A program made the translations under genes and the position numbers. Under the pieces are notes generated by a model. The model did not search any database and was not told where the DNA came from. It saw only the letters and a list, made by a program, of their open reading frames with translations. DNA of 64,000 bases from a virus (lineage: Duplodnaviria > Heunggongvirae > Uroviricota > Caudoviricetes), in the IMG/VR virus record IMGVR_UViG_3300022660_000042, one strand, 5' to 3'. Of the stretch, positions 7,174 through 49,684 are shown piece after piece (position 1 is the stretch's first letter; each line of letters starts with the position of its first letter).

Positions 7174-8193
7174 TTAATTCGCAGCTGTCTCAAGCTCAGC
7201 ATCAGTGGTCGTGTTTTCTTCATTAGATGGCATTTCAAAAGTCGATTCTCCGTCTGCTACAACTTCGAATTCTTCAACAGGTTCATTAGATTCTTCTTTA
7301 TGCTGTGCTTCTTGTTTTTCTTCAGATAGCTTCTTAATTCTTTCACTATTAGCCTTCACCAAAGCAAGTCGCTTAGCACCTTCGTCTACTTGGACAGAAG
7401 ATTGCTTAGTAAGCGTACTTCCCAATTCACTCAGATCTGCGGTTTCGAGCATTGCATCGAGGTTAGCTTTCTTTTCTTTCAAGATTTCTTCTTCAGTTTT
7501 CGCAGGTTCTGCTTTTTTAACAACTTTAGGTTTCGTTACTTGCGGTGCTGCTGCAGTTTCAGTTACTTTTTCAGTCTTCTTTTCGACAACTTTGGCTGCA
7601 ACGGGCTTTTTCTTAATAACAGTCTTTTTAACCGGAGCAGGTGCTACAACAACTTCCGGTTCTTTTTCTTTGTAAATAATCTTTGGAGCTGGCGGTGGTG
7701 GATTCATGATTTCATCACACATGTCCAACATGCATTCATTAAGCTTTGTGAGGCCAGTCATTCCATATTTAAAAAACATTGCGGTCATTTTCTCTTTCAT
7801 TTCGTCAATAAGAGAAAAAGCTTCAGAAAAAGCGGGGTTATTAATATAACCCGCACTTTCTGTAAATGTTTGTGGCTTTTTAGCTGGACGTCTGCGAACA
7901 GGCGCCGGCTCTACATAATTCGTATCATCGTCAAAATCGGGTTCAGCAGGAACTGGTGCAGGACGCGGTGCCGGAGCAGGAGCCGGACGTGGCGCAGGCC
8001 TTGGTGAAGGACGCTGCGTACGATGGGCTTCATTTATTTCCGGAACTTCGTCATTATAGAATTCATCATCTTCAAGCTCATCGACATTGACTGTCTGAGC
8101 CTTATAATTCTTATATGCCTCAAGTTTCTGTTCTTCGGTATAAGACGGGTCGTTTCTATGTAGATAGCTTATAAAAGAATCACCATTACTCAT
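7174..8193 (-). CDS. hypothetical Pro/Ala-rich protein
   Basis: 339 aa with a PRPAPRPAPAPAPRPAPVP repeat and K/E-rich coiled segments. Confidence 0.5.
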   Translation of the reverse strand: MSNGDSFISYLHRNDPSYTEEQKLEAYKNYKAQTVNVDELEDDEFYNDEVPEINEAHRTQRPSPRPAPRPAPAPAPRPAPVPAEPDFDDDTNYVEPAPVRRRPAKKPQTFTESAGYINNPAFSEAFSLIDEMKEKMTAMFFKYGMTGLTKLNECMLDMCDEIMNPPPPAPKIIYKEKEPEVVVAPAPVKKTVIKKKPVAAKVVEKKTEKVTETAAAPQVTKPKVVKKAEPAKTEEEILKEKKANLDAMLETADLSELGSTLTKQSSVQVDEGAKRLALVKANSERIKKLSEEKQEAQHKEESNEPVEEFEVVADGESTFEMPSNEENTTTDAELETAAN

Positions 8194-13498: not shown

Positions 13499-13533
13499 AA
13501 TATAGTAAAATGACGGGCTTTTGTAAACCCGCC
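13499..13533 (-). promoter_or_regulatory. sigma70-type promoter TTTACA-17-TATATT with -35 inside hairpin
   Basis: Plus-strand AATATA at 13499..13504, TGTAAA at 13522..13527, hairpin GACGGGCttttgtaaaCCCGCC at 13512..13533. Confidence 0.55.
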
Positions 13534-13541
13534 ATGCTACA

Positions 13542-14084
13542 TTATTTTAGTCTTTCAATTATCTTTTTGACAATTTCGTTATATCCGTCTTCAGTTCCGT
13601 CAGCAGTTTCATATTTCAGATTATTTGAATCCAAAAATTCCAATAATCTTCCATCGATTGCCCTAGCTTCTTCTTCAGTCTGGTTTCGACCGTTAGGATT
13701 ATACTTCTTTGCACGCTTTACGAAAATATTAAAAGTATTTGGATATTTCTTTGCTTCATAAAGGCATACATCCTGATACGGTTTTTCTTCGGTATACATA
13801 GCGCCCATTGCAATAGGACTATCTGTAACAATTACGTCAACCTTTCCGAGAAGTCTCGCAACTTTCAGGCATTGCTTACCGGTTACATATAACTGACAAT
13901 ACTTGAGCGGAAACTGATCATCTTGCCATACACGATCTTTCGCATATTCTGAAACATATTCACAATCAACGCCAGCCATCTTAAGTTTCGCAAAAATATA
14001 AGCAGCTCCTGTCGACTTTCCCGAACCAGGACCCGCATAAAGATTAACCAATAGAGTATTACATGTTCTTTTCATAATTTTCAC
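13542..14084 (-). CDS. P-loop NTPase / nucleotide kinase-like protein
   Basis: Walker A AGPGSGKST near the N-terminus; apparent GTG start. Confidence 0.6.
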   Translation of the reverse strand: MKIMKRTCNTLLVNLYAGPGSGKSTGAAYIFAKLKMAGVDCEYVSEYAKDRVWQDDQFPLKYCQLYVTGKQCLKVARLLGKVDVIVTDSPIAMGAMYTEEKPYQDVCLYEAKKYPNTFNIFVKRAKKYNPNGRNQTEEEARAIDGRLLEFLDSNNLKYETADGTEDGYNEIVKKIIERLK

Positions 14085-14095
14085 CTGTGATTACA

Positions 14096-14101
14096 AATAT
14101 A
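14096..14101 (-). promoter_or_regulatory. -10 element (TATATT on minus strand) for the 13542..14084 gene
   Basis: Plus-strand AATATA at 14096..14101. Part of a bidirectional promoter region shared with the plus-strand CCA gene. Confidence 0.4.
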
Positions 14102-14144
14102 GTAAATTTTTTATTGCCTATTGAAATGTTTATAAAAATCTGTA

Positions 14145-14173
14145 TTTACAAAAACGCTTCAGTTTGCTATATT
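14145..14173 (+). promoter_or_regulatory. sigma70-type promoter for the CCA-adding enzyme gene (TTTACA-17-TATATT)
   Basis: -35 TTTACA at 14145..14150, a 17-nt spacer, -10 TATATT at 14168..14173, and ATG at 14181 only 7 nt downstream, i.e. a leaderless arrangement. Confidence 0.55.
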
Positions 14174-14180
14174 TATTAAC

Positions 14181-15368
14181 ATGAAGATTGATTTATCGAC
14201 TATCAAAAATGACCTCCTCACTTCTGGTATGAAACTCGCTTCCGCTATCGAAAGCAAGGGTTACGAAGCATATCTGGTTGGCGGTTGCGTTCGTGACATG
14301 GTTCGTTGGACTATTGGCCAATGTGGTTTTCCGGATATTCACGATATTGACATCAGCACGAACATGCCTATCGATGAACTTCAGAAAAACTTCAAAACTG
14401 CCAGTAACAATGGCGAAGCTCACGGCACTATTCTGGTTTTCCAGGACGGTGAGCCTTTTGAAGTGACTCAGTTCCGTACCGATGGCGCTTATACCGATGG
14501 TCGTCACCCGGATTCAATCAAGTTCGCCAAGACTTTCAAGGAAGACTGCTTACGCCGCGATTTTACTATCAACGCAATGGGTCTTACCGGTCAGGGTGAA
14601 GTCATTGACTATTACGGTGGTATCGATGATGTTACGAACGGCATTATCCGAGCTGTCGGTAAGGCAGAAGACCGTTTTGCTGAAGATTATCTCAGAATTT
14701 TCCGCGGTGTTCGTTTCATGGTCAACTTCGACTATTCTTTGGCTGATAGTACCTATGAAGCGATGAAGACAACCGTTGATACTTATACTTATAAGATTAA
14801 CTCTCTGTCTTATCCTCGTATTCGTGATGAAATCAGCAAGGTCAAGAATCCTTCTAAGAATCTCGCTTTGTTTTTCACGACACTGTATCGTACCGGTATT
14901 CTGAAATACTTGGTTACTTTCGAAGATGTTGATATTCCGGGTCTGATTGCACGTTTAGAATCTGTAAATCATCTCACTGCGGATAACATCTTTGCGGTTA
15001 TCGCTTTCGGCGAATACGACGTAATGTTACATCGTCTTGCTGCTACTCGAGAAGATTCTCGTTTGCTCAAGTGGTATTATTACATGCTCAAGAAGCTGAA
15101 AGAACCTAACGAAAATACAAGCTGGGACACTATTGTTAAATTCGTCGAAGGTGATTACAAAACTCTCCTCGAACTGTCCAAGATTGTTCCTGCCTGGTAT
15201 AACAGAATTCCTATCGCTTTGAAGCTTAAAAAGGATAAACCCGATTTACATGCTATCTCTGAAAGAGTTCAGAACGAATTTCATGTTAAACCAGGTCCTA
15301 AGTTCGGTGCAGCTGTTAGCTACCTGCTCGAAGAGGCTTACGAAGCAAAAGCAAGGCATCTTCAATAA
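14181..15368 (+). CDS. cca: tRNA nucleotidyltransferase (CCA-adding enzyme) / poly(A) polymerase family
   Basis: Class II nucleotidyltransferase head motif GGCVRD with downstream D.D and RRDFTINA-like signature; 395 aa. It is the only convincing plus-strand gene. Confidence 0.8.
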   Translation: MKIDLSTIKNDLLTSGMKLASAIESKGYEAYLVGGCVRDMVRWTIGQCGFPDIHDIDISTNMPIDELQKNFKTASNNGEAHGTILVFQDGEPFEVTQFRTDGAYTDGRHPDSIKFAKTFKEDCLRRDFTINAMGLTGQGEVIDYYGGIDDVTNGIIRAVGKAEDRFAEDYLRIFRGVRFMVNFDYSLADSTYEAMKTTVDTYTYKINSLSYPRIRDEISKVKNPSKNLALFFTTLYRTGILKYLVTFEDVDIPGLIARLESVNHLTADNIFAVIAFGEYDVMLHRLAATREDSRLLKWYYYMLKKLKEPNENTSWDTIVKFVEGDYKTLLELSKIVPAWYNRIPIALKLKKDKPDLHAISERVQNEFHVKPGPKFGAAVSYLLEEAYEAKARHLQ

Positions 15369-15370
15369 AA

Positions 15371-15400
15371 ATAAACCCGGTTTTAAAAACCGGGTTTTCT
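15371..15400. terminator. bidirectional rho-independent terminator between convergent genes
   Basis: AAACCCGG-ttttaaaaa-CCGGGTTT perfect inverted repeat flanked by A-run and T-run (TCTTTT), between the + gene end (15368) and the - gene end (15402). Confidence 0.75.
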
Positions 15401-15401
15401 T

Positions 15402-15650
15402 TTACTTAGCGGTAGATTCCCAACTGAAAGTAATTGTGTTATTGTCTTCGTCCATTCGAAGGAACTTAAATTCAAATTCAGAGAATTCAATATCCTTACG
15501 TTTCATCGTGGGCGATTTTACTTGAACTTCAAGAACTGGCAAACAGCATTCTCGGAATCGTGTGATTTGACGAGATGCTCCAGGAGTTCCTTCAGCTTCA
15601 TCTACAATAGAACATGCTTTAGTTTTCTTATTAACTCTTACAATAACCAT
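15402..15650 (-). CDS. hypothetical protein
   Basis: 82-aa ORF immediately downstream of the kinase gene. Confidence 0.4.
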   Translation of the reverse strand: MVIVRVNKKTKACSIVDEAEGTPGASRQITRFRECCLPVLEVQVKSPTMKRKDIEFSEFEFKFLRMDEDNNTITFSWESTAK

Positions 15651-16091
15651 TTAGATTCTCCGTTTAATTTTAATTTCGTTTTCCAGATCCTTAAACTGTT
15701 CTTTCATGTATGCAACCTTATCTGGCGGTACATTATGAACATTTTGGAATTCGTTATCCATACGATAAATCGTGACCTCAATGCCACGAGCTGCCGCCTC
15801 TTTCAAATACGGTTTCATATCCTTACGGGTTACAAAAGTATTTGCGACGATAACATACTGAATTCCGTCGTCTAATGCCTTAAACGCTCTTTCATAACAA
15901 TTTTTATGGGCATAATAAATTCGTTTTTGGTCGAAATTATAATTACCCTTATCATCATACCAAAAATCGTCGGCCTCGAAGTGCTTGACTGTATAGCCCT
16001 GCTTTTCGAGGTCGGCTTTAAGCGCTTTGGCATAAGTAGACTTTCCGGATCCAGGGATTCCCCTGATAATTATTAATGTCTGCTTTGCCAT
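15651..16091 (-). CDS. polynucleotide kinase-like P-loop kinase (Pnk kinase domain only)
   Basis: IIRGIPGSGKSTYA Walker A. C-terminal VANTFVTRKDMKPYLKEAAARGIEVTIYRMD...VPPDKV parallels the T4 Pnk kinase domain ([30 protein letters not shown], from memory). No phosphatase domain. Confidence 0.65.
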   Translation of the reverse strand: MAKQTLIIIRGIPGSGKSTYAKALKADLEKQGYTVKHFEADDFWYDDKGNYNFDQKRIYYAHKNCYERAFKALDDGIQYVIVANTFVTRKDMKPYLKEAAARGIEVTIYRMDNEFQNVHNVPPDKVAYMKEQFKDLENEIKIKRRI

Positions 16092-16103
16092 TTTTCTGAT
16101 TTC

Positions 16104-16286
16104 CTATTCTGTGAACCGATATATTATCGCAACCAGTAGAACATTCAGTAAATAGAATTTAAAGAATATTCCTAGGATTGTACGACAACATAAGTCTTTG
16201 CTTGTGGTTCCTATTGAAGATATGACTAAAAAGAAACATTCCAATAGGAACAACGCCGTTCCATATTCAAATATAGTTAAAATCAT
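16104..16286 (-). CDS. small hydrophobic protein
   Basis: 60-aa ORF with two hydrophobic stretches, filling the gap between the kinase and ligase genes. Confidence 0.3.
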   Translation of the reverse strand: MILTIFEYGTALFLLECFFLVISSIGTTSKDLCCRTILGIFFKFYLLNVLLVAIIYRFTE

Positions 16287-17551
16287 TCTTCAATAGTCCT
16301 CTGCACGTTAGAAGGTTCCAATTTTTTGTGAACTGCACGCTTAACAGATGCATAATTAGTGATATTACGATTAATGCACTTGATAGCCTGCATAATAGCC
16401 CCAATATCGCTCTTATAGTGCTCCAGAGCGTATTCGTAGCGAGAACGCTGGTCTTCGCAAGCCTTCATGGTTTCGCGAGCCTCAGCGAGAACTTCTTCAG
16501 TACGTTCCTTAACCTGAATGCGGACACTTTCGGCGTATGCACGTAAATCAGGGAATTCTTCAGGAATATACAGAACTTCATCATCTACAGGCTTGTAACC
16601 GTTAGTCTTGTCGACATGGGCATGGAAGAAATCCTTTTCACAGTCATACGCTACCCAGATATTCCACTCGCTGAGGCATTCGAATATCTTTGCGAGCTGG
16701 CACCATTCATCGGATTTAACCTTGACCTTGAATCCATATTCCGGGAAAGTTACAACATAACCTTCCTGAGACGAAGGAAGCTTGGTCGCAGTATTTCGAG
16801 CGTCATTGAAATTATCGTATTCATAGATTTCTGCCATCTTGATTTGCCAAGTATTGGCATAAGCGCTAAGTCCAATAATATGCTCTTCAGCACCAGTTTC
16901 ATTGTCGATAACTGCCAAAAGAACAAGACCTTCAAAATCATAACGAATCGGGTGAAAATCTTCATTTGAAACAATTTCAAACAAATAAGTTTTCTTCGGA
17001 TTCAAAGTTGCCGCATGAGGACCGCCGATATGCTGGTCAAACCAACGCTGTCCCCAAATTGCCTGGTCAGAATCGAAAGATCCACCGGTCTTCAACTGCC
17101 AATGCTTAAGATAAGGATTCCAGAATACAATACCTAAAGAACCGTCCACCTTTTCCATAGTCAGGAAACGAATAGACTTGAGAATCTTTCGAATATCAAT
17201 TTTCTTCTGGTACTTCATTACCTTTTTTGCAAGGTCGGTAAGTTCGCCAGTTTCGTTGTTAATCAATTCGCCATAGTTGAAGAATTTATCAAAAGGACGT
17301 GCTACAATTTCGCCGGTTTCAGAATCGAAAACAATACCACGAGCATTGAGAGTAATTTCATCCCAATCCGATGAATATACTGTTTCACGAGTATACTTGA
17401 AACCAACCAGCTTACCATACCAGTGAGCTGAAATACGTCCCTTCTTTGCTGCCTTCAAATACTTACGGAGTCTGTGCTTGTTCCGCAGTTTCCGGAGTAG
17501 GTTCTTCAGCCAAGTCATCATTTTTCTTTTCCACCTTTTTCTTAGGCTCAT
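16283..17551 (-). CDS. Rnl1-type RNA ligase (T4 RnlA-like tRNA repair ligase); start uncertain
   Basis: KxDG nucleotidyltransferase motif MEKVDGSL. YSSDWDEITLNARGIVF / RPFDKFFNYGE parallels T4 Rnl1 YSDWLLPDALECRGIMF / RPMEKFFNLNE. The first ~30 codons overlap the 17463..17738 ORF in another frame and look like out-of-frame translation. Confidence 0.8.
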   Translation of the reverse strand: MSLRKRWKRKMMTWLKNLLRKLRNKHRLRKYLKAAKKGRISAHWYGKLVGFKYTRETVYSSDWDEITLNARGIVFDSETGEIVARPFDKFFNYGELINNETGELTDLAKKVMKYQKKIDIRKILKSIRFLTMEKVDGSLGIVFWNPYLKHWQLKTGGSFDSDQAIWGQRWFDQHIGGPHAATLNPKKTYLFEIVSNEDFHPIRYDFEGLVLLAVIDNETGAEEHIIGLSAYANTWQIKMAEIYEYDNFNDARNTATKLPSSQEGYVVTFPEYGFKVKVKSDEWCQLAKIFECLSEWNIWVAYDCEKDFFHAHVDKTNGYKPVDDEVLYIPEEFPDLRAYAESVRIQVKERTEEVLAEARETMKACEDQRSRYEYALEHYKSDIGAIMQAIKCINRNITNYASVKRAVHKKLEPSNVQRTIEE

Positions 17552-17738
17552 ACTTATGAGTCTTATCGAGTTCTACCGTTTCAATAGTACATCCAGCTTC
17601 ATACTTTTCACGAATGAAACTTTCAAGTTCTCCGCGAACTTCAGTTTCCGTTTCGCCATAACGCTTAAAAACAAGCGGTCCTGGAATACCTTCAATTAAA
17701 ACCAAGCACTTATAACGTTGTTTCATTATTTTTCCCAC
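17463..17738 (-). CDS. hypothetical acidic protein
   Basis: 91-aa ORF whose 3' end overlaps the annotated 5' end of the RNA ligase ORF. Confidence 0.4.
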   Translation of the reverse strand: MGKIMKQRYKCLVLIEGIPGPLVFKRYGETETEVRGELESFIREKYEAGCTIETVELDKTHKYEPKKKVEKKNDDLAEEPTPETAEQAQTP

Positions 17739-18391
17739 ATGGCATCGGTTTTGACCAGTTCATCAATGCTTACTGGACGATACCATGCTTCCCAGCTAAC
17801 ATTGTTTTCGACCATTTTGCCGTTATGGTTATCGACAACGCTAGTCTTGTTGAATTCATGCGTATGACCATGAACGAGATAGTCAATAGGCTTACCTTCC
17901 GCAAGATACTGGTTCAATGCGGTCGGGTCACCAGTTGTACCGTCATGTTCATTAATCGTTTCATCATAATTATAATGCTGCAACAGATAGTTCTTACCAT
18001 TATACGTAAGGTAAATGTTATCCTTTACCATAGTAATGTTCGGAAACATAGTTTCCTTGACCGGATAGAGCTTCTTGAACAGAGCATAGTCATGATTACC
18101 ACGAATCATATACATGTGCTTGAAATTCAACTTGTTCGTGTAATAATCGCCAAACACTTCAAGCAACTTGCTACCGGGAGTACCGAGAGTAAAATCACCG
18201 AGGAAAATGACAATATCATTCGGAGAAACAACAGAATTCCATTGCTTCACAATATCTTCATTCATTTCCTCGACGGTTACGTACTTTCGTGTACGGTCAA
18301 AATGATCCTCGTAACTCGTGCAGAGTTTACGATGATTAACGTGCAAGTCACTGACAATAAAAATCTTTTCGTTGTGTAATTCTAGTTCCAT
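17726..18391 (-). CDS. calcineurin-like metallophosphoesterase
   Basis: Motifs SDLHV (DxH), GDF, GNHD and GHTH in canonical order. Start moved to ATG at 18391 (MELELHNEK), 6 nt downstream of a TATATT -10. Confidence 0.75.
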   Translation of the reverse strand: MELELHNEKIFIVSDLHVNHRKLCTSYEDHFDRTRKYVTVEEMNEDIVKQWNSVVSPNDIVIFLGDFTLGTPGSKLLEVFGDYYTNKLNFKHMYMIRGNHDYALFKKLYPVKETMFPNITMVKDNIYLTYNGKNYLLQHYNYDETINEHDGTTGDPTALNQYLAEGKPIDYLVHGHTHEFNKTSVVDNHNGKMVENNVSWEAWYRPVSIDELVKTDAMWEK

Positions 18392-18397
18392 AATGCA

Positions 18398-18432
18398 AAT
18401 ATAATAAAAATAAGGCATTTTGTAAATGCCTT
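18398..18432 (-). promoter_or_regulatory. promoter (TTTACA-17-TATATT) with -35 inside a terminator-like hairpin
   Basis: Plus-strand AATATA at 18398..18403; hairpin AAGGCATTttgtAAATGCCTT at 18412..18432 contains the -35 (plus-strand TGTAAA). Confidence 0.5.
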
Positions 18433-18600
18433 ATTTTTTGTCACCAGATTTTGGAAACCGGTAACAGAGCAATACTAATAAAATTGTTTCAAGAATTACA
18501 TAGATTATCGAAAACTGAAGCTGTAACAATGAACAGAAAATGAACATTGTAAAGAACACTGATAAAAACGTGTTAATAATGAATAATAACAGTTTTTCCA

Positions 18601-18807
18601 TTATTCCTCAACTTCTTCTACCAAATCCTTGATTTTTACAATTTTAGGTTTTTGACCATTCAATTCAAACGCATGTGTATTGATATAGTCAGTACACTGT
18701 GCGGAAGAATCGAAAGTATATGCTGAGCGCGGATTTCTGGTGGTTCCCCAACCATTCCAATATTCTGAATCAATCTTAAGAACGTAATAATATTTAAGCA
18801 TAGCCAT
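18601..18807 (-). CDS. hypothetical protein
   Basis: 68-aa ORF. Confidence 0.35.
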   Translation of the reverse strand: MAMLKYYYVLKIDSEYWNGWGTTRNPRSAYTFDSSAQCTDYINTHAFELNGQKPKIVKIKDLVEEVEE

Positions 18808-18819
18808 CTTTATATATGA

Positions 18820-19938
18820 TTACTTCTGCAGATAATCTTGAATAATCTTTTCATGATGGAAACCCATCTTCGGAAGATTACCGACACTGAACCATGCTGC
18901 ATCCTTCGCATCGTCGCCGGCCTTAGCCATCTTCTTTTCCTTACCAGTAACCCTTACAGATACTGCTGTATCGATAATACGCAAGCGTGGGTCAAACATA
19001 TGGCTATAGGTCTTAATCTGTTCGAACTTTTCAACTGGGAGGTTCAGAGACGTTTCTTCGCGGAATTCACGCTGTGCTGCATGTTCCAAAGAAGCATCAG
19101 CCTTTTCAGGAAGTCCGGTTTCCTTATTGATATAATCAACCGGATTAAAGAATCCACCAGGAGTACAGAAGTAATTCATATACGGTGGTTTCCTACGGCG
19201 AATCAACAGAACTTCATCACCGGAAATACCGACAATATCAACCGTGTTTGCAAACTTTCCCCAACCCTGCTTCTTATAGTTTTCAATCCACTGCTTTTCA
19301 AGTTCAGTATAGTTGGTCGGATTCTGGTCATAAAGACTGTTTGTCTTAATCGGATTATCACGGTCATCCGTAAGTTCGCCTTCTTTTCGGATATATTCAA
19401 ACACTGGCTTGCTAATCAGTGTCTTAACATCCTTATAGTGGCATTCCGGATTACGGTAGAAAATTTTACGAGCTTCGCTACTGGAAATACCTTCAGTCTT
19501 AATACCCATGAGATAAGTACAATCATAACCGTACTTCGATTTCAATGCACCATCATTATCATCACGAGGAATAACCAAGAACTTATAGTTATTCAAAAGC
19601 TGATTACCGAACTTCCACTTTCCGTTAACCAAAGAATACCATTCGTCTTCGCCGATAACAATAGTAATATCCTTATCCTTGGTACCGAACTTATGGGAAA
19701 TGAATTCATAAGTCCTGTTATTCTGAACGAGAATCGTAGGATTCAACTTTCGTGCAGTCATTGCGACCTTAACCATCGCGACACGTTCATCTACCGGAGT
19801 CTTATAATTCTTTTCGTCCGTATTGGAAACAAGAACATAAAGTTCATCGCCCTTACGAACCTTTTTGCTCACTGCCTTAATAATAGCTTCATGAGCGTGA
19901 GTAATCGGATCAAATGCACCACCAATCAAATACTTCAT
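18820..19938 (-). CDS. bifunctional NMN adenylyltransferase / Nudix ADP-ribose pyrophosphatase (NadM-Nudix, NatV-like)
   Basis: N-terminal GGAFDPITHAHEAIIK ((H/T)xGH nucleotidyltransferase motif). C-terminal Nudix box GGFFNPVDYINKETGLPEKADASLEHAAQREFREETSL. Confidence 0.8.
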   Translation of the reverse strand: MKYLIGGAFDPITHAHEAIIKAVSKKVRKGDELYVLVSNTDEKNYKTPVDERVAMVKVAMTARKLNPTILVQNNRTYEFISHKFGTKDKDITIVIGEDEWYSLVNGKWKFGNQLLNNYKFLVIPRDDNDGALKSKYGYDCTYLMGIKTEGISSSEARKIFYRNPECHYKDVKTLISKPVFEYIRKEGELTDDRDNPIKTNSLYDQNPTNYTELEKQWIENYKKQGWGKFANTVDIVGISGDEVLLIRRRKPPYMNYFCTPGGFFNPVDYINKETGLPEKADASLEHAAQREFREETSLNLPVEKFEQIKTYSHMFDPRLRIIDTAVSVRVTGKEKKMAKAGDDAKDAAWFSVGNLPKMGFHHEKIIQDYLQK

Positions 19939-19940
19939 AA

Positions 19941-20333
19941 TTATCTCCTAATATTTCCACAAGATGTATGAGCGTCACCCATAATATCGCCCTTGACTGT
20001 AATGTTTCCTGCATGGGTTTCAACATCACCTGAAACATCACCACCAATTTCGATATTACCTGCTGCACTTTCAACATTACCCATGACGTCGCCAGAAACT
20101 GTAATGTTGTTTCCCTTACATACCTTATCTACGTCACCATAGACCGTAATGTTAATAACTTTATCTTTTACAGTAAAAGACTGATTACCAACAATAACAG
20201 TTTCACCCGAAATCTTAACAGAATCTGCGCAAATAGGTTCTTCAACCTTTTTACCGTTAATTTCAATACTATCTGTGAGGCATAAACCTTTGAGAATATC
20301 TTCAGCCATAGTTTTCCTTATGTTTTTATACAA
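19941..20333 (-). CDS. bactofilin-like protein (beta-helical repeat)
   Basis: Repeated VxGxVxGNIxxGGDVSGDVETHAGNITVKGDIMGD pattern typical of the bactofilin (DUF583) domain. Confidence 0.55.
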   Translation of the reverse strand: MYKNIRKTMAEDILKGLCLTDSIEINGKKVEEPICADSVKISGETVIVGNQSFTVKDKVINITVYGDVDKVCKGNNITVSGDVMGNVESAAGNIEIGGDVSGDVETHAGNITVKGDIMGDAHTSCGNIRR

Positions 20334-20365
20334 TATAGCAAAATTAAAGGGCTTTGTAAGCCCTT
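20332..20365 (-). promoter_or_regulatory. promoter/-10 (TATATT) plus hairpin AAGGGCTTtgtAAGCCCTT
   Basis: Plus-strand AATATA at 20332..20337 and hairpin at 20347..20365, between two minus-strand genes. Confidence 0.45.
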
Positions 20366-20369
20366 ATAA

Positions 20370-20651
20370 TTATTTAATCGTATATGTTTGACCTTCGTAC
20401 TCTACAACACGTTCTTTCTTAGGATTTTTAACTTCGACTGCGCACATCTTAAGAGAAAAACCACTTGTAGTTTCAGCTGTTACTTTTCGTCCAGCGTCAT
20501 CATCTCGATATGCAAAGCAAGGACCCATACCAGTAATATCCGCTTTTTCATGGAGGTCGCTAAGAATCATTATAGGAATCCCGAAAAAAAACAATCCCAA
20601 AATTAAAAACAAAACTGGAACTGTCCTATCTAATTTCCACATTATATCCAT
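20370..20651 (-). CDS. hypothetical membrane-associated protein
   Basis: 93-aa ORF with one hydrophobic helix. Confidence 0.4.
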   Translation of the reverse strand: MDIMWKLDRTVPVLFLILGLFFFGIPIMILSDLHEKADITGMGPCFAYRDDDAGRKVTAETTSGFSLKMCAVEVKNPKKERVVEYEGQTYTIK

Positions 20652-21988: not shown

Positions 21989-22017
21989 TAATATAGTAAA
22001 AATATTCATATTTGTCA
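21989..22017 (-). promoter_or_regulatory. sigma70-type promoter TTGACA-17-TATATT
   Basis: Plus-strand AATATA at 21989..21994, TGTCAA at 22012..22017, exact 17-nt spacer; followed upstream by hairpin AGGCTGACttgcGTTAACCT at 22030..22051. Confidence 0.6.
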
Positions 22018-22082
22018 ACCTAAAAAATAAAAGGCTGACTTGCGTTAACCTTTTACCCTCACACATCCAATATTCTTTTTTC

Positions 22083-24102: not shown

Positions 24103-24131
24103 AATATAGTAAATTGTTTGTGTTTTGTAAA
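24103..24131 (-). promoter_or_regulatory. sigma70-type promoter TTTACA-17-TATATT for the 22083..24011 gene
   Basis: Plus-strand AATATA at 24103..24108 and TGTAAA at 24126..24131, 17-nt spacer. Confidence 0.55.
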
Positions 24132-24315: not shown

Positions 24316-24344
24316 AATATAGCAAGTGTATTTTATTTTGTAAA
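24316..24344 (-). promoter_or_regulatory. sigma70-type promoter TTTACA-17-TATATT
   Basis: Plus-strand AATATA at 24316..24321 and TGTAAA at 24339..24344, 17-nt spacer. Confidence 0.55.
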
Positions 24345-26970: not shown

Positions 26971-27330
26971 TCATAAACCACGCGACGCTGAACTGGGGGC
27001 TTTCTTCATTTTTTCCTTATGTTCATTCATAAGTTTTTCAGCAAGTTCATATGACGGAATATAAGAACCAACATCCCATGAAGCATCTTTTGAACAAATA
27101 TGAGGTTTAGATTCTTCTTTCCAAATATGACTATCACGGTATCTTAAATATCGTTCCATATTATAGGTCAAGCGAAACCAATTCTTCGAACCGCTATTTA
27201 TCTTACGATATTCAACAACAAACCATGACGGGTCTCTGTTTACAATACTTGGAGCAACATCAAAATCGAACGTCGGATATTCATATGTACCGAGTTCTAT
27301 AATACGATATTCATAAAGCGATTTTTCCAT
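26971..27330 (-). CDS. hypothetical protein
   Basis: 119-aa ORF. Confidence 0.45.
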   Translation of the reverse strand: MEKSLYEYRIIELGTYEYPTFDFDVAPSIVNRDPSWFVVEYRKINSGSKNWFRLTYNMERYLRYRDSHIWKEESKPHICSKDASWDVGSYIPSYELAEKLMNEHKEKMKKAPSSASRGL

Positions 27331-28484
27331 TAGAACACATATCCTTCACGAGATTTACCGGTTGTAACATTACGCAAGATAGTCGGAATAATTTCACCAG
27401 CCTTCGTAATAATAACTTCATGACCGATTTCGATGCCCATATATTCAAGCATGTCAATATTGCACATATTTGCACGCTGAACTGTAGTTCCGCAAAGTTC
27501 AACAGGTTCAACTACTGCAACCGGAGTCAAATTGCCATTCTTGATAGACCATTCAATGTTAATGAGCTTGGTCTGAGCAAGAGAATACTTCGGCTTGAGT
27601 GCAATCGAGAATTCCGGCAAATAATTGGTTTCAAGATCTTCATAATCAATCAAAGACGTCTTCCAAACAAGACCGTCAATCTGATAATCACGTTCTTCAT
27701 GCCAAATCTGGTCCATAAGAGCGACAGCCTTTTCACCGTTCATGGTTTTAAGGTCGTAAATCTTGTAGTCAACAACATCAAAACCCTGGTTTTTCATCCA
27801 ATCAAGCATATCAGACTGAAGTCGGAAATGACGCTTGGTGTTAGAGGCATAGCGAGCTTCATAAACCTTGATATTAAGCTTTTCACAATCTGCACCGTCG
27901 AGATGCTTCATAATACCAGAAGCAGCATTTCGGCAGTTCTTATACTTCGGGAAATACTTTTCCTTAACGGACTTGTAAAGCAAAATTTCGCCGCGAATAG
28001 TTCCTGTAAAATCCTTATCGACTTTCTTGACGAGACCATTCATCTTAAGAATATTATTGGTAATGTCGTCACCGTATGTACCATCACCACGGGTAGTACC
28101 CTGAACGAACTTTCCATCGACGTATTTAAGCGCAATAGAGCAGCCATCGAGCTTCAAAGGAGCAACGACATATTCATGACCATTCATACGGCACTTATTG
28201 AACCAGACATCCATTTCTGGAGCCGTATTGGCCTTATTCTGAGAACCCATGATAATATCATGCTTGACTTTTTCAAAACCTTCAGTATGGTCCTTACCAA
28301 CTTCCTTCAAAACATCAGAATCAGGATATTTAGTCTTCAGTTCATCCCAGAGTGCATCAAATTCAATGTCGCTCATGATAGGAGAATCGGAATTATAATA
28401 GGCATCTTGTGCCTGACGGATTTTTGCTTCAAGTTCGTTCTTATTCATGTGATACAATATAGTAAAAAATATAGGCTTTGTCAA
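27330..28484 (-). CDS. ligA: NAD-dependent DNA ligase (LigA-type adenylation domain, compact phage form)
   Basis: N-terminal LigA-like opener AQDAYYNSDSPIMSDIEFDALWDEL; adenylation lysine motif KLDGCSIALKYVDGKFVQGTTRGDG (compare LigA [25 protein letters not shown]). Confidence 0.85.
   Translation of the reverse strand: MTKPIFFTILYHMNKNELEAKIRQAQDAYYNSDSPIMSDIEFDALWDELKTKYPDSDVLKEVGKDHTEGFEKVKHDIIMGSQNKANTAPEMDVWFNKCRMNGHEYVVAPLKLDGCSIALKYVDGKFVQGTTRGDGTYGDDITNNILKMNGLVKKVDKDFTGTIRGEILLYKSVKEKYFPKYKNCRNAASGIMKHLDGADCEKLNIKVYEARYASNTKRHFRLQSDMLDWMKNQGFDVVDYKIYDLKTMNGEKAVALMDQIWHEERDYQIDGLVWKTSLIDYEDLETNYLPEFSIALKPKYSLAQTKLINIEWSIKNGNLTPVAVVEPVELCGTTVQRANMCNIDMLEYMGIEIGHEVIITKAGEIIPTILRNVTTGKSREGYVF
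28456..28484 (-). promoter_or_regulatory. sigma70-type promoter TTGACA-17-TATATT embedded in hairpin
   Basis: Plus-strand AATATA at 28456..28461, TGTCAA at 28479..28484, and hairpin TATAGGctttgtcaaCCTATA at 28470..28490. Confidence 0.55.
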
Positions 28485-31178: not shown

Positions 31179-32819
31179 TTAGCGACGACGGCGACGAGAA
31201 AGTTCAGCAATAACTGTCGGATCGTTCATCATGTCCGAAAGGCTACGTCCAATAGAAGTATTAGCTTCAGCCGGTTCCTTAGTCTTGTCAACATTCGGAG
31301 TTTCCGGACGAGCTTCAGCCTTAGGTTCATTTACGACTTCTGCTTCGGTCTTTTCAACCTTTGGAGCACCGGAAACACCAGCGAGTCGGGCACCGAACAT
31401 AGAACCGAGAACAGTCTTGAGGTCCATACCGAGAGAATCGGTCAAACCGCTAGAAATCTGAGTAAGCGTCTTGGTAATATCGCCGGTGAGCTTTGCAGTA
31501 CCGCTTTCACCGTACATATTGATGTTACCAATCTTTTCCATCGGCTTAGCAACTGCACCAGCGATAGCCGGGAGCTGTTCGAAATACTTTTCAATAGTCT
31601 TGAGCTGCATTTCCTGACGAGCTGCATCACCATACTTCTTCATGGCTTCAGCCTTCTGGTCAAGAGCTGCTGCTTCTGCAAGACCCTTAGCCTTTACAGC
31701 ATCAGCTTCAGCTTCACCCTTAGCCTTAGTAGCTGCAGCTTCAGCGAAAGCCTTTTCCTTATCAGCTTCAGCCTTGGCGATAATTGCCTTAGCTTGCTGC
31801 TGCTGGGTAAAGAGTGCTGCTTCAGCTTCCTTCTGCTGCTTATAAAGTTCAGCATCAGAACGCTGCATCTGAGCCTGCTTATCGGCTTCAGCCTTCTTCT
31901 GAATTTCAGCTTCGAGTTCCTTCTGACGGACAGCTACCATGCGTTCACGAATTTCAATCTGCTTTTCCTGCTTTGCAACTTCTGCAGCTGCTGCAGTAAT
32001 ATTGATGGTCTTCTGCTGTTCCTGCTTCTGAATTTCATAAGCGGCATCAGCTTCGGCCTTCTTAGTATCAGAAATTCGCTTAAGGTCAGCCTTCTTAACT
32101 TCGAGGTCGTTCTGCTTCTGAGCGATTTCAAGGTTTGCTGCAACCTGAGCATCGTTTGCTGTCTTCGCTGCTTCAGCCTGAGCAATCTTCACGTCACGTT
32201 CTGCATTTGCTCGAGAAATTGATGCAGCCTTCTGAATTGCTACAGCCTTATCAACACCGAGGTTTTCAATTACCTTACCGTCGTCCGAGAAGTTCTGAAT
32301 ATTGAAGGTCTTAACGATAATACCGAGCTTTTCAAGATCTGGAATAGCATTTTCAAGAACCTTCTCAGAAACCTGCTTTCGGTCCGTAACCATGTCGACA
32401 AGATTCATCTGGCCGACAATCTCACGCATATTACCCTCAAGCACGTCAACAATCATCGCCTTAATCTGTTCAATCGGCTTATTGAGGAAGTTCTGGGCAG
32501 CTTTCTTAATTGCTTCAGGTTCATCAGAAATCTTTGCATTAACAACAGCGTCAACTGTTACATTAATGTAGTCCTTGGTCGGAACTGCCTGCTTAGTCTT
32601 GACGTCAATCGGAATCAACTTCAAGCTAAGAACGTCAGCACGTTCAAGGAACGGGATCTTGAAACCGGCATGCCCGATAATTGTTCGAAGCTGTCGGAAA
32701 CCCGAAATAATAATTACTTCATCCGGCGCCGCCTTAATATAAGACGTAATGAAGAGGATAACGAGGAAAAGTACGAGCAGGCCGATACCCGCACCGATGA
32801 GGATATTTGAACTAAGCAT
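31179..32819 (-). CDS. flotillin-like SPFH/band-7 domain protein with long Ala/Glu/Lys-rich coiled coil
   Basis: N-terminal TM helix, then an SPFH-like region (APDEVIIISGFRQLRTIIGHAGFKIPFLERADVLSLKLIPIDV...), then a ~200-aa AEA/AKA-repeat coiled coil typical of flotillin/YqiK. Confidence 0.75.
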   Translation of the reverse strand: MLSSNILIGAGIGLLVLFLVILFITSYIKAAPDEVIIISGFRQLRTIIGHAGFKIPFLERADVLSLKLIPIDVKTKQAVPTKDYINVTVDAVVNAKISDEPEAIKKAAQNFLNKPIEQIKAMIVDVLEGNMREIVGQMNLVDMVTDRKQVSEKVLENAIPDLEKLGIIVKTFNIQNFSDDGKVIENLGVDKAVAIQKAASISRANAERDVKIAQAEAAKTANDAQVAANLEIAQKQNDLEVKKADLKRISDTKKAEADAAYEIQKQEQQKTINITAAAAEVAKQEKQIEIRERMVAVRQKELEAEIQKKAEADKQAQMQRSDAELYKQQKEAEAALFTQQQQAKAIIAKAEADKEKAFAEAAATKAKGEAEADAVKAKGLAEAAALDQKAEAMKKYGDAARQEMQLKTIEKYFEQLPAIAGAVAKPMEKIGNINMYGESGTAKLTGDITKTLTQISSGLTDSLGMDLKTVLGSMFGARLAGVSGAPKVEKTEAEVVNEPKAEARPETPNVDKTKEPAEANTSIGRSLSDMMNDPTVIAELSRRRRR

Positions 32820-41668: not shown

Positions 41669-41697
41669 AATATAGAAAAATATCGTAATTTTGTAAA
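41669..41697 (-). promoter_or_regulatory. sigma70-type promoter TTTACA-17-TATATT
   Basis: Plus-strand AATATA at 41669..41674 and TGTAAA at 41692..41697. Confidence 0.55.
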
Positions 41698-42247: not shown

Positions 42248-42754
42248 AACTTATCCTTAACAATTAAATATAGCAAAACTGTAACAAATAGTTTACAACC
42301 TATATATAAAAGTTCTATGATTTTTAAAACGACAGAATATTTTATTTTTAGTTAAAAAAATTTTTACAAAAACTTTCTATTATTGTTTTCACATATTCAA
42401 GTCTGATTCCTCGGAACGAAAACCAATCCAATGGAATTATCGGTAGAGGGTCAGCCATTGAAAACTTCAGATACGGGTTTTCCAGAAATGAGCTGGAATA
42501 TCGTTTTGAAATATACTCGGTAACAGCTAGTGAAAGTATCAGCGAAGTACAGATTAGCAATCTGCACGTTTAGCCGCCATGGTTTTAACGGATGTAGCCG
42601 AAGTACAGGATGACCGCCTCGTAAGCCGTTATGTAAATCCCTAAAGATTGACGATGAAGCTTTATACCAAAAGTGGAATAGTCATAGTCTGGAAGTTCCT
42701 TCTAGGCTTATGATCTCTGAATCGCATTACCCAAAAGATAGAACAGATAAAAAT

Positions 42755-45738: not shown

Positions 45739-46890
45739 TTAGGCTACATTGTCTCGTTTTACGAAAATGGTAAATCCAAGGAAACCAATAAAATAGAGAA
45801 GTGCCAAAACAAGATATAAAGTATTGTCAGTAAACAAGTTTCCAAGAATAGGTCCCGCAATTCCAGCAAATCCCCAGGCACTAAGCGTCATAGAGTGAAC
45901 TGTAGAAAGACAACTATCTCCGAATCTCTTAGCAAGTAAACTTGGCAAACAACTGAATCCTCCGCCGTAGTTCCATTCAATCATCAAAATACCAGCTACA
46001 AGCAAAATCGGATTTTGTGTATAACACAAAAACGCACCAAGAATACCCAAACTTGCAACCCAATGATAAGCAGCCTTTCTACCAATCGAATCACTAGCCG
46101 TACTCATTCCAAATCGACCACCGACATTTGCAACAGCTGTAGCAGCCATAAGTGAAGCGATAGCAGTATATCCAGCATTTAAAAACAGGCTCTTTTCCTG
46201 AGAAATAAGTGCAAGGCCGCATGTAATGTTGATAAAGAACATAAACCAAATCGAAATATATTCTTTAGTCAAAAATTTGGCCTTTATAAGAGTCTTATAC
46301 GGAATAGCAGTATATTTTGTAGAAATATATGCAGGATTAGGTTTATATAGCCATGAAGAGAAACTCATTACAACTAAGAAAATCAATCCCATGAGTAAGA
46401 ATACAACTGGCAACGTAAAGGTTGCAAGCAAATACTCAATCATAGGAGCCGCAACGAACTTTCCCAATCCGAAACCGGTAATAGCCAATCCGGAAGCGAG
46501 TCCTTTATGATTACTGAAGTTTGCAAGCAGCTGTTTAATTGGTGCCGTATAGCCTATGCCGGTACCGCAACCCATAAATGAACAGCCGATATAATAAAGT
46601 GGTAAAAATCCAGTATAGGTTGCAAACGAAAGTAGCAATAATCCTATTGCAAACAGAATTGTTGAAACTATCGCCATTCGTTTCGGGAACATTTCAACGA
46701 ATCTTCCGAAAACCGCAGCACCCATGCCAAGGAAGAAAATAATCAGAGTAAATCCAATATCAGCTGAGAATTTCGAAATATCAAAAGTCTCCATGATATT
46801 CTTGGCATATTGTGAATAGTTATAAACTGAACCTAAACTGACAGGTAACAAAATACCCGGAATTAAAATATTGAGAAATCTATTTGTCAT
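45739..46890 (-). CDS. MFS-family transporter (oxalate/formate antiporter-like)
   Basis: 383 aa with ~11-12 hydrophobic helices spaced throughout, as in major facilitator superfamily transporters. Confidence 0.7.
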   Translation of the reverse strand: MTNRFLNILIPGILLPVSLGSVYNYSQYAKNIMETFDISKFSADIGFTLIIFFLGMGAAVFGRFVEMFPKRMAIVSTILFAIGLLLLSFATYTGFLPLYYIGCSFMGCGTGIGYTAPIKQLLANFSNHKGLASGLAITGFGLGKFVAAPMIEYLLATFTLPVVFLLMGLIFLVVMSFSSWLYKPNPAYISTKYTAIPYKTLIKAKFLTKEYISIWFMFFINITCGLALISQEKSLFLNAGYTAIASLMAATAVANVGGRFGMSTASDSIGRKAAYHWVASLGILGAFLCYTQNPILLVAGILMIEWNYGGGFSCLPSLLAKRFGDSCLSTVHSMTLSAWGFAGIAGPILGNLFTDNTLYLVLALLYFIGFLGFTIFVKRDNVA

Positions 46891-49647: not shown

Positions 49648-49684
49648 AATTTAAATATAACAATTTTTCTTAATTTTGTAAGCG

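Follow-up and report, generated by a model that had tools for sequence, protein, structure and literature searches.

A minus-strand operon in a 64-kb stretch of viral DNA of the class Caudoviricetes (IMG/VR virus record IMGVR_UViG_3300022660_000042; the whole stretch of 64,000 nucleotides is called the window here) encodes a binuclear metallophosphoesterase, a P-loop kinase related to the kinase half of T4 polynucleotide kinase (Pnk) and an ATP-dependent RNA ligase of the T4 RNA ligase 1 (Rnl1) type, which are predicted to form a functional set. We consider it probable that they act in a heal-and-seal pathway like that of T4 Pnkp and Rnl1, with cut tRNA as the probable target. Four independent lines of evidence suggest that the three enzymes belong together: the fusion of two of them in related phages, their linkage across viral genomes, the occurrence of the cassette in cultured phages, and conserved synteny. 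Host defences that cut tRNA are described in rising number, among them PrrC, RloC, retron effectors, PARIS and Septu, and phage counter-measures to them are of current interest, for which this operon offers a compact example of a cassette present in many large phages. A sequence-only reading of the window had proposed an RNA-repair module of four enzymes at this locus, the fourth being a CCA-adding enzyme encoded on the opposite strand.

Operon structure and conservation

The operon comprises, in order of predicted transcription, the genes for the metallophosphoesterase, a small open reading frame (ORF) of 87 or 91 amino acids (aa; ORF87/91), the Rnl1-type ligase, a hydrophobic 60-aa ORF, the 146-aa Pnk-like kinase and an 82-aa ORF (ORF82). 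It is tightly packed, with stops and starts that overlap or abut across all six ORFs between one promoter and one terminator, and the six genes are thus predicted to be co-transcribed from a single phage promoter. All genes of the module are kept and under purifying selection when compared with a relative (ratio of nonsynonymous to synonymous substitution rates, dN/dS, mostly 0.04–0.24; 0.42 for the 60-aa ORF). The entire arrangement, including the inverted gene for the CCA-adding enzyme, is retained in relatives with 77–86% protein identity.

The four enzyme identities of the sequence-only reading were recovered at the same positions, with Pfam and PHROG matches that include PF01743, AAA_33, PF09511 and PF00149; the three small ORFs of the operon (17463–17738, 16104–16286 and 15402–15650) had been missed in that reading. 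It had also described the gene for the CCA-adding enzyme as the lone plus-strand gene, and among plus-strand ORFs with 120 aa or more, this gene (14181–15368) is indeed the only one without a longer minus-strand ORF lying over it.

Family assignment and catalytic motifs

The metallophosphoesterase (221 aa; 17726–18391, minus strand, within the ORF 17726–18418) matches PF00149 (Metallophos; 3.7e-14, 54 bits, cutoff 21.5) and phrog_547 (3.5e-33). As in the sequence-only reading, M10 (18391) is the most likely start of translation, because homologues and fused forms begin there and because a promoter-like element covers 18426–18398. The residues of the binuclear fold that bind metal and phosphate are invariant in 41 homologues (SDLHVNH 14–20, GD 65–66, GNHD 98–101, H139 and GHTH 175–178), and the predicted model has a predicted local distance difference test (pLDDT) score of 95.6. 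The protein belongs to the aq_1665 clade (1XM7 / phrog_547 family) rather than to the clade of Clostridium thermocellum Pnkp (CthPnkp) and lambda phosphatase. Two residues described for the superfamily can be compared: the GNH histidine, a determinant of 2',3'-cyclic phosphodiesterase activity, and the arginine of the GDxxDR motif (PMC3675462). The first is present (H100, corresponding to His264 of the CthPnkp type), and the second (Arg237) is absent, with GDFTLG in place of the motif. A literature search found no paper on the function of the 1XM7 / aq_1665-type family.

Single-sequence searches of the PDB with the kinase, the ligase and the phosphoesterase gave weak or generic matches, and family profiles were therefore used. 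The kinase (15651–16091, minus strand) matches AAA_33 (8.5e-9), phrog_2071 (2.8e-35) and phrog_505, annotated as polynucleotide kinase (7.5e-10), and falls in the clade of T4 Pnk, PSTK and CthPnk. Its P-loop RGIPGSGKST (residues 10–19) and D41 are invariant in 37 homologues, and a further motif, NVHNVP, is nearly so. Against the PDB, the family profile retrieved PSTK (1e-10), T4 Pnk (1ly1; 2e-8, full length), Pnkp1 (2e-8), CthPnk (1e-6) and mammalian PNKP (6e-6). In the profile alignment to 1ly1, D41 lies opposite the first aspartate of the T4 Pnk sequence NRDDY, which we take to be the catalytic D35. The AlphaFold2 model (pLDDT 90.6) gave its best Foldseek template modelling scores (TM-scores) with PSTK (0.81) and T4 Pnk (0.70); the fold matches ranked after these two are small-molecule kinases (PFK-2, APS kinase and gluconate kinase). 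The kinase fold spans all 146 aa, so that the C-terminal DxDxT acyl-phosphatase domain is not present, and Pfam and PHROG scans gave no HAD match in the kinase or in ORF82; the description of the protein as the kinase half of T4 Pnk only was thus upheld. We propose it as a putative 5'-OH polynucleotide kinase.

The ligase (16283–17551, minus strand; 422 aa) matches PF09511 (RNA_lig_T4_1; 6e-17) and phrog_562, the family of T4 gp63 (1.6e-45), with residues 38–399 covered. The start at 17551 given by the sequence-only reading is less likely than M11 (17521), the probable start, because a 98%-identical homologue is 412 aa long. Residues K134, D136, E192, E263/G264 and K277/K279 are invariant in the family and align with motifs I, III, IV and V of T4 Rnl1 (TKEDG, FEF, EGYV and KIK; 2c5u, profile E 2e-13). 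In the C-terminal part, the phrog_562 match reaches residue 399 of 422, and the profile alignment to the T4 Rnl1 structure is significant only to about profile position 269. A score of 62.7 bits with PF09511 (cutoff 28.3) and of 47.1 bits with the NCBIfam equivalog model TIGR02308 (cutoff 242) mark the protein as a predicted member of the Rnl1 family and not as an equivalog of T4 RnlA.

The gene on the plus strand (14181–15368) encodes a class II CCA-adding tRNA nucleotidyltransferase of the Bacillota type with 395 aa, which matches the PolyA_pol head domain (PF01743; 1.7e-29) and phrog_2244, annotated as tRNA nucleotidyltransferase (3e-51). The Bacillota-type CCA model NF009814 aligns over residues 12–378 (6e-65), with 219.8 bits under its equivalog cutoff of 290 bits. 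The motifs GGCVRD (34–39), DID (55–57), RTDGAYTDGRHP (99–110), RRD (125–127) and EDYLR (168–172) are in place, and GGCVRD, DID, RRD and EDYLR match the CCA-adding enzyme 6ibp residue for residue. PDB matches to CCA-adding enzymes (6ibp, 4e-43; 1miv, 9e-38) exceed those to a poly(A) polymerase (1.7e-17) and an A-adding enzyme (2e-13), and by these scores the protein appears closer to CCA-adding enzymes than to either of the other two types.

Linkage and fusion of the three enzymes in other phages

Gene neighbourhoods were compared in 80 IMG/VR loci with a homologue of the kinase, which fall into 35 clusters at 70% identity and were examined over 10 kb per side. A phosphoesterase lies at most 3 kb from the kinase in 44 loci (17 of the 35 clusters) and an Rnl1 gene within the same distance in 19 loci (12 clusters). 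Both are invariably encoded on the strand of the kinase (48 of 48 phosphoesterases and 19 of 19 Rnl1 genes), and the gaps are mostly shorter than 1.1 kb. Moreover, phosphoesterase and kinase are fused into one polypeptide of 357–365 aa in several related phages (P0060–P0064 and P0066), with the phosphoesterase at the N-terminus and the kinase at the C-terminus. These fusions share 61% identity with the phosphoesterase and 51% with the kinase of the window, and one of them, P0060, represents 500 member sequences. The genes for the fused enzyme (P0060–P0066) were located at 8001–9080 in L009, 5876–6949 in L011 and 9344–10429 in L019–L022. The proposal that the separate phosphoesterase is the partner of the kinase is thus supported by both the fusions and the strong same-strand linkage in phages.

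The same three families recur in cultured phages. Vibrio phage VnaP encodes three homologous genes in identical order and on the same strand, whereas in Escherichia phage rV5 the Rnl1 gene is divergent from an adjacent kinase-phosphoesterase pair. In Acinetobacter phage D22 (Saclayvirus) the order is ligase, kinase, two small ORFs and phosphoesterase, and in a further lineage of phages of ~400 kb, Rnl1 is followed by one ORF and then by a kinase that is 49% identical. A stand-alone kinase is found in 624 phage records.

It was also observed that a single phage group holds the module as fused, adjacent, or split by inserted genes. Two candidates for a hidden RNA ligase in relatives were rejected, namely a 397-aa protein beside the fused enzyme in L009 (BLASTP against the ligase of the window, E 0.20; no PHROG ligase family) and the genes between the phosphoesterase and the kinase in L008 (no PHROG ligase family).

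Proposed pathway and alternative explanations

In the pathway that we favour, the aq_1665-type phosphoesterase would take off a 2',3'-cyclic or 3'-phosphate and leave a 3'-OH, the Pnk-like P-loop kinase would phosphorylate the 5'-OH, and the Rnl1-type ligase would then join both ends via lysyl-AMP on K134. The CCA-adding enzyme could rebuild or complete tRNA 3'-CCA ends, either of damaged host tRNAs or of phage tRNAs encoded elsewhere in the ~400-kb genome. Precedents for such a pathway are the RNA 3' healing by the metallophosphoesterase of CthPnkp (PMC3675462) and the order of phosphoesterase and kinase in the bacterial HD-Pnk. The closest solved relatives of the kinase are all polynucleotide or tRNA enzymes (PSTK, T4 Pnk, Pnkp1, CthPnk and mammalian PNKP). 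We infer that the substrate would be RNA rather than DNA, and tRNA in particular, that the phosphoesterase would act as a 2',3'-phosphatase, and that the CCA-adding enzyme may cooperate with the operon.

Several observations weigh against this pathway. First, no Rnl1 gene was found in the available flanks of the phages with the fused enzyme and of the relatives with 60% identity. In bacterial chromosomes the kinase is solitary among unrelated genes; the cellular mini-kinase homologues (L102–L126, from Vibrio, Leptospira and Moritella, with 31–42% identity) have no phosphoesterase or ligase within 6 kb, so that the linkage is a phage feature and the bacterial neighbourhoods provide no functional clue. 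Second, the phosphoesterase does without the phosphate-binding arginine of GDxxDR (GDFTLG), and close kinship with the phosphatase domain of CthPnkp, which belongs to a clade of proven RNA 2',3'-phosphatases, was looked for and not found. Third, the healing activity of T4 Pnkp and mammalian PNKP extends to DNA ends, and RNA and DNA substrates therefore cannot be told apart by sequence. Fourth, the gene for the CCA-adding enzyme adjoins the cassette in one of the 80 kinase loci, which is a close relative, and no tRNA gene was detected in the 64-kb window or in the flanks of 11 fetched loci of relatives.

For the CCA-adding enzyme, an explanation outside the repair pathway is a serious contender, at somewhat less than even odds. 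The enzyme would then mature phage tRNAs without an encoded CCA or maintain the tRNA pool, and its gene would merely adjoin the operon in an island of counter-defence and metabolism. The single adjacency among the kinase loci fits this explanation, as do the convergent transcription unit of its own and, in rV5-like phages, the location of the cassette ~3 kb from a tRNA gene cluster; since the genome is ~400 kb, phage tRNA genes may lie outside the window. On the other hand, the promoter of the gene is of the same class as that of the operon, the terminator is common to both, the arrangement is retained in relatives, and neither the window nor the relatives' flanks contain the tRNA genes that such a maturase would serve. 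The survey of jumbo-phage RNA repair by Iyer et al. 2021 (PMC7824862) counts CCA-adding enzymes among the repair nucleotidyltransferases. Of the earlier proposal that the CCA-adding enzyme belongs with the repair module, its presence beside the cassette was confirmed. A role in the repair of damaged tRNA 3' ends is a guess, and the enzyme could equally act in ordinary tRNA maturation.

A second alternative, which we regard as improbable, is that the phosphoesterase and the kinase heal DNA ends (3'-phosphates and 5'-OH nicks) during phage replication or repair and pass them on to a DNA ligase, in the manner of mammalian PNKP, with the RNA ligase incidental or engaged in tail-fibre attachment of the T4 kind. 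Activity of T4 Pnkp and PNKP on DNA, and the appearance of PNKP among the profile matches of the kinase, would agree with this, as would an NAD-dependent DNA ligase (27330–28484) and a UvsX recombinase encoded in the window, the NAD+ salvage genes that flank the cassette, the lack of a nearby RNA ligase in the relatives with the fused enzyme, and an ATP-dependent DNA ligase ~3 kb from the cassette in rV5. However, the DNA ligase of the window is 9 kb distant and in a different transcription unit, and the neighbour that recurs, in 12 of 35 lineages and always co-oriented, is an RNA ligase of the Rnl1 type, which in VnaP stands in the same three-gene order.

Least credible, and in our view very improbable, is an action of kinase and phosphoesterase on small molecules (nucleosides, nucleotides, NAD+ intermediates or signalling nucleotides) together with the NMNAT-Nudix and NAD+ salvage genes: three sub-lineages of this phage group do have an NMNAT-Nudix gene next to the kinase or the phosphoesterase, small-molecule kinases (PFK-2, APS kinase and gluconate kinase) follow PSTK and T4 Pnk among the fold matches, and the bacterial kinase homologues are orphan genes with no repair context, but the top profile and fold matches over the full length of the kinase are polynucleotide or tRNA kinases, the NMNAT-Nudix gene of the window is in a separate upstream unit that ends at the hairpin 18438–18406, and its linkage is limited to one related phage group, and may thus be inherited gene order, whereas the linkage to Rnl1 recurs across unrelated phage groups.

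Comparison with known end-healing systems

T4 Pnkp (PseT) and Rnl1 (RnlA, gp63) follow the same logic, in which a 5' kinase and a 3' phosphatase are combined with a ligase of the Rnl1 type, and the kinase of the window shares the fold, P-loop and catalytic aspartate of T4 Pnk, as its ligase shares motifs I, III, IV and V of Rnl1. Unlike in T4, where the phosphatase is a DxDxT (HAD) domain on the kinase polypeptide, it is here a separate binuclear metallophosphoesterase, the three genes stand in one operon, and the ligase scores 47 bits on the T4 RnlA equivalog model, which requires 242. The fused relatives, with their N-terminal phosphoesterase, reverse the domain order of T4 Pnkp and also that of CthPnkp. 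The bacterial system of C. thermocellum (Pnkp-Hen1, or the split form Pnkp1-Rnl-Hen1) likewise combines a P-loop 5' kinase, a metallophosphoesterase and an ATP-dependent ligase; here, by contrast, the arginine of GDxxDR is lacking, the ligase is of the Rnl1 type and not a Pnkp ligase domain, and the enzymes are separate polypeptides. A scan of ten ORFs between 11706 and 19938, covering all genes of the module except the 60-aa ORF, found no Hen1-type methyltransferase domain. The bifunctional end-healing HD-Pnk of Runella slithyformis has a 2',3'-phosphoesterase at its N-terminus and Pnk at its C-terminus and is encoded beside a ligase (PMC6097658). Its domain order is that of the fused relatives P0060–P0066, but its phosphoesterase is an HD domain rather than a calcineurin-like one, the protein comes from a bacterium, and the ligase beside it belongs to another type.

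The cassettes of the cultured phages (VnaP gp010–012, rV5 gp076–078 and D22 gp102–106) consist of the same three homologous families, but their identities to the proteins of the window are only 28–40%, and none has a gene for a CCA-adding enzyme beside it. They differ further in the divergent orientation of the rV5 ligase and in the shorter ligase of VnaP (295 aa). A literature search found neither a biochemical test of the VnaP, rV5 or D22 cassette nor a paper on the cassette of rV5. In the survey by Iyer et al. (PMC7824862), jumbo-phage RNA repair sets consist of Rnl1 or Rnl2, polynucleotide kinases, phosphoesterases (calcineurin-like in a few) and CCA-adding enzymes; the last rank second in frequency among the repair nucleotidyltransferases, and NAD+ salvage genes are covered as well. 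Its accessible text does not mention the present operon, the fused or split forms of it, or the lineage of rumen phages. The sequence-only reading had called the split of kinase and phosphatase into separate genes a non-canonical arrangement. This view was not supported: the split form is widespread and annotated in rV5, VnaP and Saclayvirus phages, and it can be regarded as common in phages given the 624 records with the kinase, the homology-based annotation of the cassette since rV5 and the jumbo-phage survey. The three-gene cassette is common in known phages, this locus is a clear but ordinary example of it, and as a genome feature the operon was to be expected and is not surprising. Taken together, the fused and split forms predict a function for the orphan 1XM7 clade and for the widespread small phage kinase that is usually labelled ‘ATPase’.

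A broader reading, which is speculative and as a whole unlikely, would make the aq_1665-type phosphoesterase, paired or fused with a mini Pnk, a fourth class of RNA end healing besides the HAD-type T4 Pnkp, the lambda-phosphatase-type CthPnkp and HD-Pnk. In the rumen jumbo-phage lineage of the window, the cassette and the CCA-adding enzyme might also form a two-site tRNA repair unit for anticodon-loop cuts and acceptor-end damage, and the three small proteins (87–91, 60 and 82 aa) may be specificity or regulatory subunits. If true, a fourth end-healing class would assign the 1XM7 / phrog_547 family, present in hundreds of phage genomes, its first function.

Transcription signals and small genes

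A promoter-like element at 18398–18426 (minus strand), TTTACAAAA-N-TTTATTATATT, lies 6 nucleotides (nt) 5' of the ATG of the phosphoesterase gene (18391), and a second element of the operon type at 14145–14173 (plus strand) ends 7 nt ahead of the ATG of the CCA gene. Because the −10 box ends only 6–7 nt before the ATG at these two sites, leaderless mRNAs are suggested. The six-gene operon and the convergent CCA gene have a common bidirectional intrinsic terminator at 15373–15397, a perfect hairpin (AAACCCGGTTTT-A-AAAACCGGGTTT) with T-runs on both strands. The promoter-like motif TTTACA-N17-TATATT, also written TT(T/G)ACAAA-N-TTTxCTATATT in its recurrent form, occurs 11 times in the window with at most one mismatch against an expected 1.5 times, and every copy is oriented with a gene (148–176, 13499–13527, 14145–14173, 18398–18426, 20332–20360, 21990–22018, 24103–24131, 24316–24344, 28456–28484, 41669–41697 and 49654–49682). 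The hairpin 18438–18406 marks the end of the upstream NMNAT-Nudix gene, which is a separate transcription unit, and holds the −35 box of the promoter-like element of the operon in its loop.

GC hairpins with the −35 box in the loop, which are also terminator-like for the upstream gene, were noted at 13535–13510 and 20365–20347 as well as at 18438–18406. The placement of a promoter within a stem-loop is reminiscent of the promoter/stem-loop cassettes of T4-type phages.

The three small ORFs of the operon, all on the minus strand, appear translationally coupled to the genes for the ligase, kinase and phosphoesterase and are conserved in relatives. The start of ORF87/91 (17463–17738) overlaps the stop of the phosphoesterase gene (TAATG) and its end overlaps the start of the ligase gene; its product shares 69% aa identity with that of a relative (dN/dS 0.24). 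The hydrophobic 60-aa ORF (16104–16286), whose start overlaps the ligase stop (ATGA), is kept in relatives with its frame intact, at 90% DNA identity and 72% aa identity (dN/dS 0.42). ORF82 (15402–15650) abuts the kinase stop (TAAATG) and has 78% aa identity to the relative (dN/dS 0.13). Neither ORF87/91 nor ORF82 had a family match in the Pfam or PHROG scans.

On the other side of the CCA gene, a minus-strand gene (13542–14084) encodes an AAA_28 P-loop protein with 94% aa identity to a relative (dN/dS 0.04). It was rejected as a member of the module; its likeness to RecA is at the level of the P-loop only, and its PHROG match to ‘thymidylate kinase’ is weak.

Genome context

A megablast search of positions 14000–18500 against phage records gave no match, and hence no close cultured relative. 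Protein homologues with 77–99% identity were found on metagenomic contigs of 106–421 kb, and the sample record names point to rumen studies. In the window itself, a scan with Rfam gave nothing but a cow-rumen-2 RNA (RF02947), distant from the module. This RNA (42541–42645, plus strand) is full-length, scores 102.8 bits (gathering score 66), and lies between minus-strand genes on the opposite strand. The contig sizes, the rumen samples of the homologues and the cow-rumen-2 RNA together suggest a rumen jumbo phage of ~400 kb, and this orphan Rfam motif would thereby be located in a jumbo phage genome.

Besides the UvsX recombinase and the NAD-dependent DNA ligase encoded in the window, a gene for a family-B DNA polymerase was seen on the same flank in syntenic relatives. 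The DNA ligase (384 aa, minus strand) has only the adenylation and OB domains. In relatives, a separate protein of 258–271 aa holds the BRCT and HhH parts (L006, 13190–14005), and the ligase may thus be split into two genes. Directly upstream of the operon, a minus-strand gene (18820–19938) encodes a bifunctional NMNAT and Nudix protein, with counterparts in the relatives L006–L008 at 18745–20441. Relatives also have a gene of the isochorismatase family (possibly a nicotinamidase) and an NAPRTase gene nearby. The NMNAT-Nudix gene, its neighbours and the NAD-dependent DNA ligase look like an NAD+ salvage island beside the RNA repair genes.

Two membrane proteins that are unusual for a phage are encoded on the minus strand of the window, a Major Facilitator Superfamily transporter (45739–46890; 4e-26) and an SPFH/flotillin-like protein (31179–32819; 7e-22). 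In the flank of the relative L003 that corresponds to about 7–11 kb of the window, genes for two tandem Cpn10 (GroES) proteins, a ClpP protease, an eIF-1a-like protein and a SpoVG-like protein were found (14374–15047, 17103–17849 and 18886–19206 of that relative).

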